Positions 42,001 to 51,000 of a stretch of DNA of 64,000 nucleotides are shown in pieces (position 1 is the first letter of the stretch; each line of letters starts with the position of its first letter). Made by a program: the position numbers. The stretch comes from an uncultured Gemmatimonadaceae bacterium (GTDB lineage: Bacteria; Gemmatimonadota; Gemmatimonadetes; Gemmatimonadales; Gemmatimonadaceae): the NCBI GenBank assembly GCA_963822945.1, contig CAWGJO010000021.1:327614-391613 (forward strand). Reading direction: 5' to 3'.

Positions 42001-45000
42001 ACGTCGCGCAACCAGTCGCGCTGACTCCATGACGCCGGTCACCCGCGCGCGGGTGGCCCGGGGGCTAGGCTCCAGGCGGACCTACCGGGAGGGTCTCCGC
42101 CATGAGCCATCACGCTCGACACAGCCAGGTCGAGGGCGCCGCGCTGCAGGAGGGTTGGGTCATCGCCAACCACATCCTGGTTTCGTTTCACGTCGCCTTC
42201 ATCTCGTCCGTGCTGGCATTGCCGGCCACCTCCATCCTCAAATGGGAGGTACTGAAGTTCGTGTTCGTGAGCCCGGAGACATTGGTTTCCGCCGTGTTCA
42301 TGGGCGTCAGCTTCCATCTGGGGATCGCCCTGCACGAGATGGGGCACTTTCTGACGGCCGCACGCCTCAACGCGCTCAACGACTCCGTGCTGCCCGAGGT
42401 GAAGCAGCGACTCGAGGCTCCGTGGCCGTCACGCTGGCTGTTCTACTTGACGATGATCGCGCGTATCCCGTACGGCGCGGCGCCAGGGGTGAAACGAGAG
42501 GGACTGAACTACTACCCCGACGCCCCCTACAACCTAGCGGTGGCTGCCGCCGGGCCCCGGGCCAGCCGGAACGTGGCCCTGGCCACGCTGCCCATTGCCA
42601 TCGCGCTGTTGGTGCTGGGGCTCTCCTCCGACATCGTGTGGGCCATTTACGCCGGTCGCCTGCTGCTGGGCATTGGTGTGGTCTGCTTCCTGGACTTCCG
42701 CCTGGCCGATCCGGGCAAGTACCGCGCGTTCCGAGAGCGTGAGCTGGCGGCGGCGGACAAGGCCAAAGCCGTAGGAGAGGTCTCCGGTTGGCTGGCCCTC
42801 GCCGCGAAAGCCAAGGCCGCCATGCTGGAAGGACGCATGCAGCGGGCAACCCATCCCGTGCTCGGCAGCGTCACCGCCCCCTGGCAGTTCCGCAACTCCG
42901 GCATGGGCGGACGTCACACAGAAAAGGAATACCCAGAGTCGAACGTCAGCATGCAGGAAGCCATGTTCCTGATCCTGCGTGCCGACGGCTACCGCGAGGC
43001 GCAAGAGCTGACCGTCCGGCTGCAGAACCGACTCAAAGAGATCATCGAAGGAGAAGAGGGTTGCCGCGTGATGGGCATCGGCCTCGAGGGTGGCTTGGCG
43101 CCGTACATCGACAAGGGCGACTTCCCGCTGCCGGAGATGCGGCTGTGGGCAATGATGAAGCGCGCGATCGCGGAGTGCGGTTGCCGTCCCGGGGAGGACG
43201 TCGCGATCGCCCTCGATCCCGCGGCCAGCGAGCTCGAGATCGCGTATCGCGAGGAGAACGCCGTCCCAGACGCCGTGGGCAGCTACCTGTTCTGGCGGGA
43301 CAAAGCCAAGACGGTGCTCGACCGGGACGCTCTGCTGGAAGTGTACGTCACCGCCATCGAAAAGTACGAGATCCCGCTGTTGTCCATCGAGGACGGCTTC
43401 TCGGAGAACGACCACGAAGGCTGGCGATTGCTGAAGGAGCGCCTCGGGGAGCGTCTGTTCATCATCGGTGACGACTTGGTCACCACCAACGACAAGACCA
43501 TCGAGATTGCGGCCGACGCCGGGCTCATCAACTGCGCCCTGATCAAAGCCAATCAGATCGGAACGCTGTACGAGACCTTGCTCGCCATGCTCGTGGCCCT
43601 GGGGAAGAACCTGGAGCTGGTGGTTTCCCACCGCTCCAAGAGCCCCAACGACGACATGGAGGCGCACATCGCGCTGGCGGCAAACGCCCTGGGACTGAAG
43701 GCAGGCGGCGGTTCCAATACCGAGCGCCTGGTGAAATACCAGGCCGTTTCCGAGCGCCTGTTGGCACTGGACGAGGGCGAGCAGCAGGGCGGCTTGGGCG
43801 AAGGCGAGCAGGCGTTGGTGCGGCATCTGCGCGCCTACGAAGAGCCGACCAATGCCGGCATTCCGACCGTGGGCGCCACCGCAGAGCTGACCCTATCCGG
43901 CTCCGGCGTGATGCTGGCTCTGCGCGGCGCCACGCCGCTCGGCACCTCCGCCGGCAGCGGCGAGGCCATCCACCTGGTCGACTCCACCATCGAGCGCGCG
44001 GAGTACCGCGAGGTGATCGAGCGCCATCCCGCTCTGTTCCGCGACGTAGAGCTGGGCGTCCACGCGTTCAAGAAGGACGTCGACGAAGCACGCATTCGCG
44101 CGGAAAACGACCCAGAGCTCCTCGCGCTATTCCAGCGGGCCCGGCGCTACGGCGGGAAGGGCTGCTTGAACGCCGTGGAGAGTGTCACGCACATCGTCGC
44201 CCCCTACTTCCAAGGCAAAGACGCGGCCTCGCTGACGCTTCTGGATCTAGATCGCGCGTTGCTCAAGCTGGAGCTCCAAACCGCGAAACGACGGGGCAAG
44301 CTGGCGGAAGACGCTGACGAAGCGGAGTGCGTCCGCGTGATGCAGCGCAAGCAGAACCTCGGCATGAACGCGATCTTGTCGGTGTCCCTGGCGCTCGGGC
44401 GCGGCATCGCGCGGGTGCACGGCAAAGAGCTGTTCGAGCTGCTTCGCGAAGAAATGATGGCGGTGATAGACCGCGTCGCCGCCAGCCACGACGTGGCCAT
44501 CAGCGGCGGGCGATTCGAGGACTACGTGCGGGCGCTTGCGGAGGTCGCGGGCAAAGCCGAGGTCCCGCTCCACCAGCTGCTGCGCGATGCTTCAGGGCTG
44601 TATGGCGAAGCGCCGAAGGCGGCGGTGCGCCGCGCGCCCAAGGCTCCCAATGTCGAGCAAGAGCCGGAGATCGTCGCCGAAATCGTACCGCCCCACGCTG
44701 CGGCGCAGGAGGTCCTGCGGGCCATCGCCGAGCGGCTCGGCAACGGCTACGAGCACGACGTCCATCATGGCCTCAGGCACGCGCGAGATCTCCTGGCGCG
44801 GGCAGAAGCCTTGGCGACGGAGCTGGACGTGGCAGAGCGCGTGGACTGGCGCGTACTCGCCGCCGCGGTGTCCCTGCACGACGTCGCGGCCGCCGAGACG
44901 ACCAGCCACGGCAAGGCCGGCGCCGAGCGCGCTCGAGAGCTGCTCGGCGAGCTGCCGGGCTTTTCGCACGACGCCGTCGAGCGGGTGGCGGACAGCATCG

Positions 45001-48000: not shown

Positions 48001-51000
48001 AAGAGCTGGATGCCATCTTGGCGGATCCGTTCAGCCAGCTCGTGGGCGCGGTCAATGCGGTGTTCGACTCCTGGGAGACGGACACCGCGGCGCGTTTCCG
48101 AGACATCAAGGGCATCTGCCACAGCTGGCATACCGCGGTGAGCGTGCAAGAGATGGCCTTCGGCAACCGCACCAATGCCAGCGTGGAGCCGGGGCTGGAC
48201 GAGACCAAGGCGTCGCTCACGGGCGTCATCCCACGCACGTTCCCGACGGACGCGGGCGTGCGAGCATTCGAAGGCGAGATCAAGTTCTCGGCTGCAGGCG
48301 ACGACCTCGTCAGCGGCATGACCTACTCCGATTCCTTCCGGTCCATCGGCGAGCTGGACCAGCTGATGCCGACGCTGGAAACCCGGCTCAAGCACGCCGT
48401 CGCCAAGCTGCGGCGCTTCATGGGCACGGATCAAGAGGTGGAGTTCACGGTGGAGCGTGGCGTGCTCTCCGTGCTGCAAACGCGACGCGCCGAAGCCCGC
48501 CGAGATCAGGCAACGGACCGCTTCTTGGACCCAGGGGATCCCGCCACTCGCGGCTTGGGCGTTCGGGGCGGAGGCTTCCGCGGCATGGTGGCCTTCGACG
48601 ACGCCGACCTAAGCGAGCTATCGGCGGTGGATTTGACCGAGCGGGACGACGTCGACGGCGTACTCTTGGTGATCGAGAACCCCACACCGGCGGACATCCC
48701 GATGATCATCTCCGCGGACGGTCTGCTGACGGCCCGCGGAGGCTCCACCTCGCACGCTGCGGTCGCCATCAACGGTATCGAGAATCGAGACTACTCCGGC
48801 GTCGTGAGCGCCATGAACCTGGACGTGGACGTCGACCGCCACGAAGCAATCATCCGGGGAGATTCGGGTGAGGTGCTGTACCGATTGAAGACGGGCGACG
48901 TGGTCAGCATCCACGGCACCACGGGAGACGTCTACATCGGCTCCCGCCGCATTCAACGCACCAACTGAGAGGCCGATCTATTGTCGGTCCGGCGCGAGCA
49001 CGACGCGCGGCGGAGTGAGCCGCAGTTCAGCTCACTTTTTGGGTGAAAACTTCCAGCCGTTCTCCGTCCTGAAGAACGGCCGCGCCATCCACGGTGCTTC
49101 TTGTCCGTCGCGTCGCAAGATGGGCCGCACCAGCGCAAACTCTAGATCGCGCGTAATCTTCTCGTTCTCTTCGGTGCGCAGCACCCCACGCTCCACCACC
49201 TCGACGCGCACCACCTCGGTTGGCTTCATTTCCGAGTCGTGGGGCTTGACGAAGTCGCGTAGCGCCGCGTCGAATTCATCACGCTTGATCGGCTTCTTCG
49301 TCAAAGCGCGCATCTCTTCAAACGTGATCGCCAGCTTGGTTGCCGTTTCGGTGTCGCCAGCGAACATGGCTCGATAGAAGCGCAGCGCGACGTCTTCGAT
49401 GTCTCCGTTCTCGCTGGCGGGCAGGGTGGAGGGTGGAGCCGCGTCCATGATTTCGGCGCTCGCCACTGGTTCGGCGACCTCCACCGGTGGCGCCGGACGC
49501 GCGCGGTGCTGCTCGGAACCGCAACCGAACACCAGCAGCAAGCCCAACCAGCACGGGCTGCGCATGTTTGACCTACTTCACCGGCCACACGGTGCCGCAG
49601 CGCACCAGCGGCCCGATCATGGCTTTGAAGTAGGTGTTGCTCTGGTCCTTGTGAGGCTTCATCAAGGACTTCCGCTTGGACTCGGACAGGGCCTTCCAGC
49701 GCGTCGTGACCTCGGTGATCTTGGCGGAGTTGGCTTTCTCCCAGTCCATGATGGCGCCCGTCAGCTCGCCGCAATCCGTGTGCTCGCCCGCTAATTTGGC
49801 CTGGGCGCCGAGCAACTCGACTCGGTCCTTGGCCAGGGCCTTTTCTTCGGGGCTGGCGCAGCCGCCGAGAGCGATCGCCGCGAGTAGGGGCAGAGCGAAG
49901 GGGGTTCGAAGATGTGTCGCCATGATGCTGCTCCAAAGAAGTAGTAGGGGCACGGCTTGGCCGCGCCCCTACTACGCCGCGGGCAGGCAATTCTTCCGGC
50001 TCAACCCCCGGGCTGAAACTTGGCGCGCTGCTCGCGGTTGGAAAGATCCGCGCCCGTACGATAGGGGCGACGATTCGTGTAGGTGATCGTCACCTTGTCG
50101 TTGTCCAGGGTCTGCGGAACCTCGAACAGGATCCAGCCCTTGGTCTTGTCACCCTTGGCCAGGCTGTTCGACTTGAGCGTGGGGCTGCAATTGCTCCCAG
50201 AACGCGTGGTGGCGCGATAGGTCAGTCCTTCGGGCCCCGTGGCCTTGAAATTCGACGTGGAGACCAGGTGGTTCTTTTCGAAATTGCCCTCGAACAGCGC
50301 GAGAGCTCCCACCAGCTTCTGCTTCTTCTTCGATAGGCTTCGGCGGCTGTAGAAGTTGTCGAGTCGACACTCCTTGTACTCCTGGAGGGTGATGGTCACG
50401 CCATCCAGCTTGGCCTCTTCGTTCAGCTTGAACGTCTGGGTGGGCGTCGGGGGCTCGACGGCCTTGGGTTTGGTGGTGGCAGTCGCTGTGACTGCGGGTA
50501 CCGAACTGGTCGTGGATTTCTTCTTCTTGCACGCTAGAAGCGCTAGCCCGACGACGATGATTGCGGGCACGAGCGCCTTGGCCGAAAGCCGGAGTCCCAT
50601 GCTACCTCCTGCGGTTGGAGCGAACTGATCGACTCCGAACCCTAACGGGTGAGGGCGCATAAGAAAACCCCGCGCCGACGCGTGCGGCCCCATCCGGGCG
50701 CCGAAAATATTGCGTGTCCGCCGCGCGCTTGCTCAGAACGTCTGGTTGTCGAAGCGAAACAACAAATAGTGAGGCGTACCGGTGGGGTTCACGACGATCG
50801 CGCCATCCGGACCCGAATTGTTGCGATGGACGAGATGCGCGCTGCTCGCGTAGCTGCCGCCGGAGCTGACGGCGAATACCGAGATGGGCGCGCCCACCTC
50901 GATCTCGGCCGCCACCTTGACTACCAGCTCGCTCATGGGGATCGGAACGAACTCCGCGCTGTGCACTTTCAGCATGCCCGGATAGTCGAGGTCCACGTTG

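Follow-up and report, generated by a model that had tools for sequence, protein, structure and literature searches.

We analyzed a 64,000-nucleotide stretch of DNA (the window) from an uncultured Gemmatimonadaceae bacterium and found that it contains a gene for a real 2288-residue membrane protein, in which a rearranged enolase is joined to the half of pyruvate phosphate dikinase (PPDK) that is driven by ATP and carries phosphate. The protein consists of two modules: Module A (residues 1-840; a membrane domain and the enolase) and Module B (residues 1121-2288; a helical domain and the dikinase part). Our tentative reading of the whole is a two-module membrane enzyme in which the acceptor site for the phosphate on the swivelling histidine would lie in the helical domain and not in the enolase. 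Our literature searches turned up no paper on this protein family. The features, with the evidence for each, are:

42102..48968, + strand: whole gene, protein P0001; 2288 codons plus stop, ATG start (full-length relatives)
42102..42776, + strand: site-2-protease (Peptidase M50)-like membrane domain, residues 1-225 (Pfam, conservation, structure search)
42333-42347, + strand: HEMGH, residues 78-82 (motif in the membrane domain)
42804..43745, + strand: enolase C-terminal TIM barrel, placed first, residues 235-548 (Pfam, TIGR01060, alignment to B. subtilis enolase 4A3R)
43857..44465, + strand: enolase N-terminal domain, placed second, residues 586-788 (Pfam, TIGR01060)
44466..44621, + strand: conserved helical segment of ~50 residues after the enolase, residues 789-840 (also in stand-alone membrane-enolase proteins)
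44622..45461, + strand: YedJ-like HD phosphohydrolase insert, residues 841-1120 (Pfam HD, PRK10119, PDB 3gw7)
45462..47441, + strand: conserved 660-residue central domain, residues 1121-1780 (model, conservation)
47442..48500, + strand: PPDK-type ATP-grasp nucleotide-binding domain, residues 1781-2133 (TIGR01828 positions 8-337; PDB 9pzl/1kbl)
48507..48965, + strand: phospho-histidine swivel domain, residues 2136-2288 (Pfam, PPDK alignment)
48753-48755, + strand: catalytic His2218 (alignment, residue letter confirmed)

The open frame is intact and has full-length relatives

An earlier survey had found one uninterrupted 2288-codon frame, and the ORF listing agrees with it. Translation of 42102..48968 (+) gave 2288 amino acids with no internal stop, and GC by codon position (0.69/0.42/0.86) is typical of real genes in this window of 65-70% GC. 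The Pfam matches were reproduced for Enolase_C (269-548, 6.7e-45), Enolase_N (586-725, 1.3e-9), PPDK_N (1831-2083, 3.6e-12) and PEP-utilizers (2185-2226, 1.2e-7), as were the PDB sequence matches of residues 1778-2133 to PPDK residues 3-342 (2.7e-49) and of residues 256-550 to enolase residues 139-407 (1.1e-40).

We found that 239 database proteins match residues 1030-1780 at E<=1e-5; among the 120 matches listed, 108 have at least 1950 amino acids. Relatives occur in 269 species-level genomes, and each of 47 fetched loci contains a single open frame of at least 1900 amino acids that aligns along the query. These long relatives and loci confirm that the gene is not an assembly fusion. Frameshifts do occur elsewhere in the assembly, in the canonical enolase on contig C4 and in split M50 genes, as might be expected if the gene were an assembly chimera or decaying. 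We rejected this explanation, to which we assign almost no probability, because the frame is uninterrupted, full-length relatives exist, and the catalytic residues of the enolase and dikinase parts do not vary among 29-42 relatives drawn from many phyla.

The dikinase half lacks the PEP/pyruvate barrel

By lineage, our data place the dikinase part with PPDK and not with PEP synthase, since it scores 249 bits with TIGR01828 and 17.5 bits with TIGR01418. With PPDK (TIGR01828; 1KBL, 1DIK, 9PZL) it shares the ATP-grasp domain (profile positions 8-337), the swivel domain with its GGxTSH motif, and the nucleotide-site residues. K1794, R1868, E2114, Q2126, R2128 and His2218 (in GGSTSH) are kept relative to 1KBL and 9PZL and are invariant in the family; judged from these residues, the front half of the dikinase looks working. 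Unlike PPDK, the giant protein has no PEP/pyruvate TIM barrel: Pfam found no PEP-utilizers_C barrel in the 2288 residues, and the chain stops at the swivel-domain boundary, where the PPDK alignment reaches residue 513. Nucleotide-binding and swivel domains without this barrel are what the survey had described. The protein further differs from PPDK in scoring well below the 843-bit TIGR01828 cut-off, in carrying a new 660-residue helical domain ahead of the ATP-grasp, and in being fused to enolase, HD and membrane domains.

With no such barrel to receive it, the phosphate on the swivel histidine must go to another place. We propose that the ATP-grasp domain would use ATP to load His2218, with Pi as the probable co-substrate and with AMP and PPi as products, as in PPDK. 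The swivel domain would then bring the phosphoryl group to the helical domain, where a second site would lie around D1353, E1375, R1377 and H1381, so that this domain would replace the barrel and phosphorylate an acceptor.

The central helical domain is a candidate acceptor domain

The middle of the protein had been described as a 780-residue fold without known relative. We found that it is not one region: an optional HD insert (~841-1120) precedes a conserved 660-residue core (1121-1780). The model of this core (pLDDT 89.5, pTM 0.82) begins with two helices and a small beta sub-domain, followed by an all-helical part. Across 42 sequences, 37 columns are invariant; many are Arg, His, Glu, Asp or Asn and lie on two neighbouring helices. 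The invariant polar patch comprises R1336, R1340, D1353, W1356, E1364, N1374, E1375, R1377, R1378, H1381 and H1382. Judged by this conservation, the central domain is a candidate active site.

The absence of a known relative holds for the solved structures we could compare and fails in sequence space. No convincing relative of the domain was found among PDB solved structures or in Pfam, the structure and Pfam comparisons revealed no likeness to the PEP-utilizers barrel, and no likeness to the rifampin-binding domain appeared. A profile of the domain matched only 98 of 1.84 billion representative proteins at E<=1e-3. The distant long matches with a Pfam family (P0292, P0293, P0295, P0298 and P0300) all carry PPDK_N (5/5), and hhalign of A2 gave 97.2% with P0293 and 95.2% with P0295, both single-sequence templates. 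D1353, E1375, R1377 and H1381 are common to the central domain and these distant relatives in other barrel-less dikinases, a link drawn from five to seven distant sequences. The host dikinases have the glucan-water-dikinase domain order with HEAT repeats, and P0292 and P0293 carry a GWD1-type phospho-histidine domain.

Dikinases with swapped acceptor domains have been described, including RPH, HpeHI and PpsAB (PMC12167813), and the central domain of GWD1 is reported to be all-helical, to face the catalytic His and to be the proposed transfer site (PMC13553574). Rifampin phosphotransferase, HpeHI/CreHI/PpsAB and GWD1 (PMC12167813, PMC13553574, PMC4844700) resemble the giant protein in combining an ATP-grasp, a swivelling His and a non-barrel second-substrate domain. 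The second domain is all-helical in both the giant protein and potato GWD1, whose central domain (9HA9/9QVI) is likened here by description only. The order differs from that of GWD: the giant protein has the helical domain, then ATP-grasp, then His, which is the PPDK order.

The enolase is a permuted paralogue in genomes with a canonical enolase

Both domains of canonical enolase (EC 4.2.1.11; PF03952 + PF00113; TIGR01060; 4A3R) are present in reversed order. The circular permutation noted by the survey stands in that the barrel precedes the N-domain; the end of the N-domain moves from 725 to ~788, since TIGR01060 positions 53-138 correspond to residues ~680-788. Profile positions 116-138 are matched twice, in the N-domain (586-788) and at 235-257, so that a duplicated remnant further distinguishes the protein from canonical enolase. 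The residues aligned to metal-binding and acid/base positions are kept: the barrel retains H272, E286, E329, D372, E430, D457, K482, H510, R511 and K533 (alignment to 4A3R), invariant in the family, and the N-domain has the S616 loop (PLGTSAG) and two insertions. By this residue set, the enolase is predicted to be catalytically complete. It differs from canonical enolase in being membrane-tethered, in its TIGR01060 score (206 bits against a 300-bit cut-off) and in having SHRSKSPND where the usual motif is SHRSGETED.

We found a canonical enolase in 46 of 47 carrier genomes, which makes the giant protein's enolase a paralogue. In the present genome, the housekeeping enolase on C4 is indeed separate, as the survey had stated, but is split by a one-base frameshift in the assembly. 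A canonical PPDK (E<=1e-120) is also found in 39 of the 47 carriers, most of which are incomplete MAGs. Since carriers keep a normal enolase and a normal PPDK, the giant protein is an extra system.

These counts bear on another reading, in which the helical domain binds pyruvate or PEP and the protein is a full PPDK analogue with an enolase attached. Located at the membrane next to a proton-pumping pyrophosphatase, it would channel pyruvate through PEP into 2-phosphoglycerate, or run in the opposite direction. The PPDK-lineage ATP-grasp and its fusion or adjacency to an enolase, for which PEP is product or substrate, are consistent with such a bypass, as is the richness of carriers in PPDK and in membrane pyrophosphatase (42/48 carriers against 4/14 controls, which, like those for PPDK, were not phylogenetically matched, most carriers being incomplete MAGs). 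The pyrophosphatase count and the presence of both canonical enzymes also fit our favored two-module reading. We consider the bypass improbable, however, given that the same genomes already contain both canonical enzymes, that the helical domain does not resemble the PEP-utilizers barrel, and that its distant relatives lie in dikinases of glucan-water-dikinase order.

The two modules also occur apart

Module B exists as a separate protein: we found 88 shorter proteins, mostly of 1150-1200 amino acids, with PPDK_N and PEP-utilizers. At four loci (L006, L015, L034, L051) the modules are adjacent split genes. No Module B was present within 10 kb of stand-alone Module A at L057, L077, L079 or L080, and the helical domain was found nowhere in the Module-A-only genomes (0/5 checked; positive control 4/4). 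The helical domain is thus inherited together with the dikinase half.

The survey's boldest reading passed the phosphoryl group from the dikinase to a site elsewhere in the chain. Its dikinase half, with kept catalytic residues, is supported; the enolase as receiving site is not, and is unlikely because a helical domain of its own accompanies the dikinase half in every case, including the separate proteins of 1150-1200 residues, because the membrane-enolase half lacks that domain in 5/5 genomes checked, and because the helical domain has distant relatives in other barrel-less dikinases. In its specific form, the enolase barrel would replace the missing barrel and phosphate would pass between the swivel His and a substrate, PEP or some other, bound at the enolase site. 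The enolase active site binds PEP, and most relatives have enolase and dikinase in one chain; yet its residues match an ordinary enolase and include no addition suited to phosphoryl transfer, loops close the enolase site during catalysis, and Module B is self-contained. We regard this version as very unlikely.

We favor instead that the Module A enolase would interconvert 2-phosphoglycerate and PEP at the cytoplasmic membrane face, and that Modules A and B would be coupled through fusion or gene adjacency. Since Module A occurs without Module B in some lineages, the chemical link between enolase and dikinase may be indirect or regulatory.

The membrane domain resembles site-2 proteases

The survey had noted N-terminal helices with an HExxH motif. 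These are present, but the description was incomplete, as a weak similarity to Pfam Peptidase_M50 (E<=1; 2.1e-7 at best) runs through 40 of 42 members. Hydrophobic segments are confined to residues 19-205, and no other part of the protein is as conserved as this domain (mean column identity 72%), with H78, E79, H82, G151, P152, D198 and D203 invariant. With site-2 proteases (RseP 7W6Z, mjS2P 3B4R, SpoIVFB 8VJL) it shares HExxH inside a membrane helix, AAAGP (148-152) and the conserved LD aspartate (L197-D198/D203). S2P chains were its best structural matches among 48,161 chains: RseP 7w6z_A (Z 8.6, 130 aligned) and mjS2P 3b4r_B (Z 8.4, 120 aligned), with ferroportin tying with S2P chains at Z 8.3. 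It differs in an M50 score under the Pfam cut-off (18.1 against 27.2 bits), in having no PDZ or CBS domain, and in the large cytoplasmic enzyme array that follows this putative protease. Module A would thus pair a site-2-protease-like zinc membrane domain with the permuted enolase paralogue.

It is possible, if unlikely, that the dikinase half does no more than phosphorylate itself, serving as a histidine kinase or a sensor of energy state, and gates the S2P-like domain or the enolase, with the helical domain as docking scaffold; this would make the protein an intramembrane protease gated by metabolites. SpoIVFB and other site-2 proteases have cytoplasmic CBS domains that sense nucleotides, a parallel for such gating. 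The high conservation of the membrane domain with its HExxH and LD motifs points the same way, and the existence of Module A without Module B would make the dikinase an accessory. Furthermore, no conserved neighbouring gene suggests a metabolic pathway (the most frequent neighbour cluster is found at 9 of 57 loci, and none includes the window), which also counts against our favored reading. VadK (Rv1127c) of Mycobacterium tuberculosis is described as a regulatory histidine kinase derived from PPDK, without the barrel and with the autophosphorylating His kept (PMC13400623). Compared by description, it shares these traits with the giant protein, and that description gives it no helical, enolase, HD or membrane domains. 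Against a regulatory role, the Arg/His/Glu patch is common to distant dikinases of other architectures and has a catalytic look, the enolase has lost none of its catalytic set and so retains more than ligand-binding residues, and M50 homology is weak: besides the low Pfam score and the Z scores of 8.4-8.6, which tie with unrelated chains, hhalign with the genome's own RseP-like protein aligned 12 columns at 15% probability.

An optional HD insert separates the modules

The HD-type region proposed by the survey was recovered by several searches. Pfam HD matched 4/4 sequences at 20.4-26.9 bits (cut-off 22; window protein 20.5), PRK10119 matched 4/4, and the best PDB profile matches were YedJ 3GW7 (1.4e-8) and 2PQ7 (2.9e-8). 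The insert carries the HD metal motif of YedJ-type phosphohydrolases (H888/H889, H926-D927, H969, D992/D994-Q-L-D-A-F-G) and differs from them in being internal to a larger protein. In our favored two-module enzyme, it would be an optional phosphohydrolase whose simplest role would be to erase or proof-read a phosphorylated product. Among the matches listed, 25 of 108 full-length relatives contain the insert, patchily distributed on the tree.

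Architecture of the giant protein

The gene under study and its position in the window are as follows:

42102-48968, + strand, giant membrane-enolase-dikinase gene

We found that this gene is one open frame of 2288 codons, as the survey's finding had it: it starts with ATG, its translation is free of stops, and its codon-position GC (0.69/0.42/0.86) is like that of other real genes in this 65-70% GC window. The Pfam matches previously assigned to the product were reproduced, namely Enolase_C at residues 269-548 (E 6.7e-45), Enolase_N at 586-725 (1.3e-9), PPDK_N at 1831-2083 (3.6e-12) and PEP-utilizers at 2185-2226 (1.2e-7), and a search of PDB sequences returned the same picture of an enolase joined to a pyruvate phosphate dikinase (PPDK). 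Pfam also gave a weak Peptidase_M50 match (residues 70-232, E 0.036), while NCBIfam aligned positions 8-337 of its 865-position PPDK model to residues 1781-2131 and gave a weak HD phosphohydrolase match at residues 884-1015. Below, Module A refers to residues 1-840 (membrane domain and enolase) and Module B to residues 1121-2288 (a helical domain, residues 1121-1780, and the dikinase half); the HD insert lies between them.

A dikinase half that ends at the swivel domain

Compared with PPDK (9PZL/1KBL), the dikinase half keeps K1794, R1868, E2114, Q2126, R2128 and the motif GGSTSH, which ends in H2218. All six of these dikinase-site residues are invariant (25-31 relatives; 29-sequence alignment A1). 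The swivel motif fits GGxTSH, with H2218 and both glycines invariant and S-T-S nearly so. The full PPDK model TIGR01828 scores 249 bits against a cut-off of 843. The earlier claim that the PEP/pyruvate TIM barrel is missing also stands, since Pfam gives no PEP-utilizers_C match and the chain stops at the equivalent of PPDK residue 513, the end of the swivel domain. One rival explanation, which we hold less likely, is that the protein is a fused bypass of PPDK plus enolase.

A conserved helical domain that accompanies barrel-less dikinases

The model of the helical domain, built from a 42-sequence alignment (A2), reached a pLDDT of 89.5 and a pTM of 0.82 and comprises a pair of helices, a small beta sub-domain and some 25 helices. 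There are 37 invariant columns in A2, and the model places the invariant residues R1336, R1340, D1353, W1356, E1364, N1374, E1375, R1377, R1378, H1381 and H1382 on two adjoining helices. Searches for known relatives gave little. A profile of the domain found nothing below E 0.56 among PDB sequences, Pfam produced scattered weak matches across the 42 members (most commonly MbeD_MobD, in 15 members, best 1.4e-4), Foldseek returned 0 matches against the PDB at E<=1e-3, and the ESM Atlas yielded no usable match. The wide VIA-align search peaked at Z 10.2 across 95 residues, and VIA-align on Foldseek's list gave BRIL-type bundles only (Z<=8.6). HPt/CheA-P1 bundles reached only Z 8.0-8.4, under the tool's stated level of helical noise, and RPH chains were absent among the matches listed in these structure searches. 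On sequence profiles and on a structure comparison made with the whole-domain model, the helical domain appears to have no convincing known relative. Complex prediction between the helical domain (A2) and the swivel domain (A5) gave an ipSAE of 0.00 in both runs, which, with no control folds, is uninformative either way.

Among 1.84 billion representative proteins, a HMMER search with the helical-domain profile found only 98 at E<=1e-3, mostly family members or fragments. Six of the most distant matches were scanned with Pfam, and each of the five long ones (P0292, P0293, P0295, P0298 and P0300) is a dikinase:

P0292 and P0293, in order HEAT repeats, matching region, GWD1-type phospho-histidine domain, PPDK_N
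P0295, P0298 and P0300, PPDK_N
P0297, 428 aa, no Pfam match

Comparison of A2 with P0293, an uncharacterised dikinase with the GWD domain order, by hhalign gave 97.2% probability (E 2.8e-11, 153 columns), and with P0295 it gave 95.2% over 337 columns. The features common to the helical domain and these distant relatives are IDRL, E1375, R1377, H1381 and a following AY...G motif. The distant matches and the hhalign comparisons therefore place the helical domain in a rare, wider set that accompanies barrel-less dikinases. P0292 and P0293 belong to a separate rare dikinase family of their own, in which the ATP-grasp domain is RPH/PEP-synthase-like and no characterised member was seen.

In some known dikinases a different acceptor domain stands where the barrel would be (PMC12167813; PMC13553574). 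In potato GWD1, an all-helical central domain beside the His domain is the proposed transfer site, and its E900, E901 and R904 point towards the catalytic His (PMC13553574). P0293 gave no match to the GWD central domain in the PDB. By its ATP-grasp domain, its swivel histidine and a separate, putative second-substrate domain, the giant protein seems akin to dikinases of the RPH, GWD and PpsAB kind. Following the logic of dikinases with non-barrel acceptor domains, the best-supported reading is that the giant protein acts as a dikinase whose phosphate would be delivered to a site in the helical domain. ATP would load His2218 in the ATP-grasp site, Pi would be used and PPi released, as the PPDK lineage of the ATP-grasp domain suggests, and the swivel domain would then hand the phosphate to the site within the helical domain. 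The enolase may make or consume PEP beside the dikinase, at the membrane, and the HD domain may serve as an optional phosphohydrolase. Should the helical domain prove to be a new dikinase acceptor site, it would add a new substrate class to the swivelling-histidine enzymes and offer a handle on the role of barrel-less PPDK paralogues.

A circularly permuted enolase with a complete catalytic set

Both parts of an enolase are present. The C-terminal TIM-barrel matches PF00113 at residues 269-548 (6.7e-45) and Bacillus subtilis enolase 4A3R (4.7e-43), and the N-terminal capping domain matches PF03952 with 38.8 bits against a cut-off of 35. Because positions 116-402 of TIGR01060 match residues 235-548 and positions 53-138 match residues about 680-788, the barrel lies ahead of the N-domain. 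Positions 116-138 have two matches, one at each end of the enolase module, which is what permutation via duplication and trimming might be expected to leave. The protein scores 206 bits against the 300-bit equivalog cut-off of TIGR01060, and its domain order is reversed relative to a normal enolase.

Compared with 4A3R, the barrel keeps the motifs QE(286)AMF, GLE(329)GG, ALD(372)PA, SIE(430)DG, GD(457)DL, LIK(482)ANQIG, SH(510)R(511)S and LK(533)AGG as well as H272, and the N-domain keeps the loop PLGTS(616)AG, in which S616 was assigned by reading of the loop. S616, H272, E286, E329, D372, E430, D457, K482, H510, R511 and K533 are invariant (25-31 relatives; A1). We take the metal-ligand and acid/base roles here to be those of yeast enolase residues S39, H159, E168, E211, D246, E295, D320, K345, H373, R374 and K396. 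The survey's finding had proposed the enolase barrel itself as the site that receives the phosphate, a rival to transfer into the helical domain; we favor the helical domain as the putative acceptor.

The membrane domain resembles site-2 proteases

Strongly hydrophobic segments are confined to residues 19-205, and the membrane domain is the best-conserved part of the protein, with a mean column identity of 72% across 42 sequences. Its invariant set comprises H78, E79, H82, N136, D140, AAAGP148-152, D198 and D203. An HExxH motif in a membrane helix and a distal Asp are thus present, with D198 and D203 both candidate third ligands. Of the 42 members, 40 have a Pfam M50 match at E<=1 (the best at 2.1e-7), and the window's protein scores 18.1 bits, below the 27.2-bit gathering cut-off. 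In a VIA-align search of 48,161 chains with the AlphaFold model of this domain (pLDDT 78.5), ranks 1-2 were an RseP orthologue (7w6z_A; Z 8.6, rmsd 5.5, 130 aligned) and the Methanocaldococcus jannaschii site-2 protease (3b4r_B; Z 8.4, rmsd 6.2, 120 aligned), and ferroportin, at Z 8.3, ties with both; SpoIVFB (Z 6.2) and another RseP (Z 6.0) scored lower. Foldseek gave 3b4r_A at E 0.96 only, and hhalign against the genome's own RseP-like protein aligned the HExxH helix alone (12 columns, 15% probability). Together these data suggest an M50-like membrane domain, a candidate member of that family.

In a further rival reading, the protein is a VadK-like regulatory kinase that gates the protease-like domain (PMC13400623). 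Were the membrane domain an active, enzyme-gated site-2 protease, glycolytic state would be linked directly to regulated intramembrane proteolysis.

A probably old, apparently dispensable HD insert

The insert at residues about 841-1120 is a YedJ-like HD domain, as judged from profile matches. Pfam HD gave 20.4-26.9 bits in 4 of 4 sequences against a cut-off of 22 (window 20.5; two of the four above the cut-off), PRK10119 matched all four, and a profile of the insert found Escherichia coli YedJ 3GW7 (1.4e-8) and 2PQ7 (2.9e-8) in the PDB. The H..HD..H..D metal motif (H888/H889, H926-D927, H969, D992/D994) is conserved in HD-bearing relatives. Among the 120 listed proteins, 25 of the 108 relatives of >=1950 aa carry the HD domain; an occupancy map of 31 relatives finds these query residues only in the ~2300-aa length class, and the insert occurs in 3 of 47 loci (L003, L010 and L070). 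On a FastTree phylogeny of the last 1150 residues, the HD trait requires 9 changes or more, of which well-supported branches force 7, and 0 of 500 label shuffles had as low a number of changes. HD-bearing forms are therefore spread over many deep clades, and the simplest reading is an old HD insert that was lost repeatedly. The giant protein evidently works without it. In a Thermoleophilia MAG, a membrane-enolase module is followed by an HD domain before the contig breaks off (L062:10001-13288), which places an HD-bearing form in one more phylum.

Module B is an add-on to the membrane-enolase module

With residues 1030-1780 as query, we found 239 proteins at E<=1e-5, and by length the 120 listed form two classes. 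A relative is present in 269 species-level genomes of the collection; the 80 that were listed are without exception MAGs, with the labels Acidobacteria/Thermoanaerobaculia, Aminicenantes, Planctomycetota, Gammaproteobacteria/Lysobacterales, Deltaproteobacteria/Myxococcota, Krumholzibacteria, Gemmatimonadales, Dehalococcoidia, WOR-3 and others. Of the fetched loci, 48 had an open frame >1900 aa, and 47 remained after one in which a different gene had been picked (L045) was dropped.

Shorter proteins that match the helical domain number 88, most of them 1150-1200 aa long with PPDK_N and PEP-utilizers (P0124, of 1179 aa, is one natural short form); several of the 88 lie on contigs >100 kb. By sequence, then, the helical domain is co-inherited with the dikinase. 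The natural soluble form of 1150-1200 aa would lend itself to biochemical work. At four loci (L006, L015, L034 and L051) Module A and Module B are adjacent separate genes. At four others (L057, L077, L079 and L080) a membrane-enolase gene is followed by 10 kb of downstream DNA without Module B, and the helical domain was found in 0 of 5 genomes with a lone Module A, which are small MAGs (1.0-2.4 Mb) of unknown completeness; as a positive control, the same search recovered a single copy in each of 4 carrier genomes. Given these genomes with Module A and without Module B, Module A can work alone, and Module B is an add-on joined to it by fusion or adjacency. Two apparent 1300-aa split forms (P0053 and P0111) were rejected as natural modules; they start inside the enolase N-domain. 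A Dehalococcoidia MAG has two tandem membrane-enolase modules (L055:10001-15064), and a third stretch ~6 kb downstream of them (21129-21914) shares 31% identity with the enolase barrel of the giant protein.

Carrier genomes keep the housekeeping enzymes

We rejected the possibility that the giant protein's enolase replaces the housekeeping enolase across the family, since 46 of 47 carrier genomes keep a canonical enolase scoring over the cut-off. Replacement of PPDK was likewise rejected, as a full-length PPDK (E<=1e-120) is held by 39 of 47 carriers, compared with 5 of 14 control genomes that were not phylogenetically matched. Membrane pyrophosphatase was found in 42 of 48 carriers and in 4 of 14 unmatched controls. 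The presence of these three enzymes in carriers therefore indicates that the giant protein is an additional system, in organisms whose economy is based on pyrophosphate. In one closed Aminicenantes chromosome, a stretch of about 45 kb contains a canonical enolase, a canonical PPDK and the giant gene (G032:C1:2474935-2519116).

The window's own genome comprises 3.97 Mb in 45 contigs and is 88% complete; within that fraction a full PPDK was not found. Its canonical enolase (L081 about 2100-2140; G000:C4:2391-3640) is split into two overlapping frames by an apparent one-base deletion just past the GDEGGFAP motif, which may reflect either faulty assembly or a pseudogene. In the latter case, the sole intact enolase of this genome would be the one in the giant protein. 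Two ordinary M50 protease genes of the same genome (G000:C14:33192-34521 and G000:C12:55835-56343; L093-L096) are each matched in two pieces in differing frames, which fits scattered single-base assembly errors.

An undescribed combination of known enzymes

A literature search of titles and abstract starts turned up no paper about an enolase that is permuted, anchored in the membrane or fused to PPDK. The parts are of known kinds; what has not been described is their combination, the permutation and the helical domain. Few enzymes of central metabolism are better known than enolase and PPDK, and here paralogues of both are joined to a membrane zinc domain, in the same protein as a conserved 660-residue domain without a solved relative. 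At least 269 species-level genomes from more than ten phyla, nearly all uncultured, carry this combination.

A joint reading of all parts goes further, and taken whole we regard it as rather unlikely. It supposes a membrane-bound phosphotransfer system new to science in anaerobes with a PPi economy, two-gene forms included, in which an ATP/Pi-driven swivelling histidine would phosphorylate a new acceptor in a new helical active site. This would be coupled to a dedicated 2-phosphoglycerate/PEP pool from the permuted enolase and to the intramembrane zinc site, and would constitute either a new step of lower carbon metabolism or a metabolite-gated intramembrane protease. The system would form part of a wider set of barrel-less PPDK paralogues paired with special copies of glycolytic enzymes.

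Genomic neighborhood

When neighboring ORFs >=90 aa of the window and of 57 loci were clustered, no conserved neighbor emerged. The three best-represented clusters, all of which lack the window, cover these numbers of the 57 loci:

9 loci, molybdopterin oxidoreductase
7 loci, Ser/Thr kinase with TPR repeats
6 loci, AMP-binding enzyme

Among the matching sequencing runs listed, 4 are DNA runs, each with a share <=0.10, and none is an RNA run. In the window the giant gene stands alone, as the upstream acyl-CoA dehydrogenase gene and the small downstream ORFs are on the opposite strand. The acyl-CoA dehydrogenase ORFs are directly upstream and divergent, and represent a tandem pair or another frameshift. 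These and other features of the window are as follows:

31311-32015, - strand, ORF with an HMPTM-type zinc ribbon and the beginning of a radical SAM domain
39217-41770, - strand, overlapping ORFs 39217-41118 and 40586-41770 in different frames, both matching acyl-CoA dehydrogenase C-terminal domains
51533-53617, + strand, three-gene run of a TerB-like protein, a small Ras/Arf-like GTPase and a short-chain dehydrogenase
57970-59583, + strand, sigma-70 family protein with a YCII-like part N-terminal and DUF6596 C-terminal
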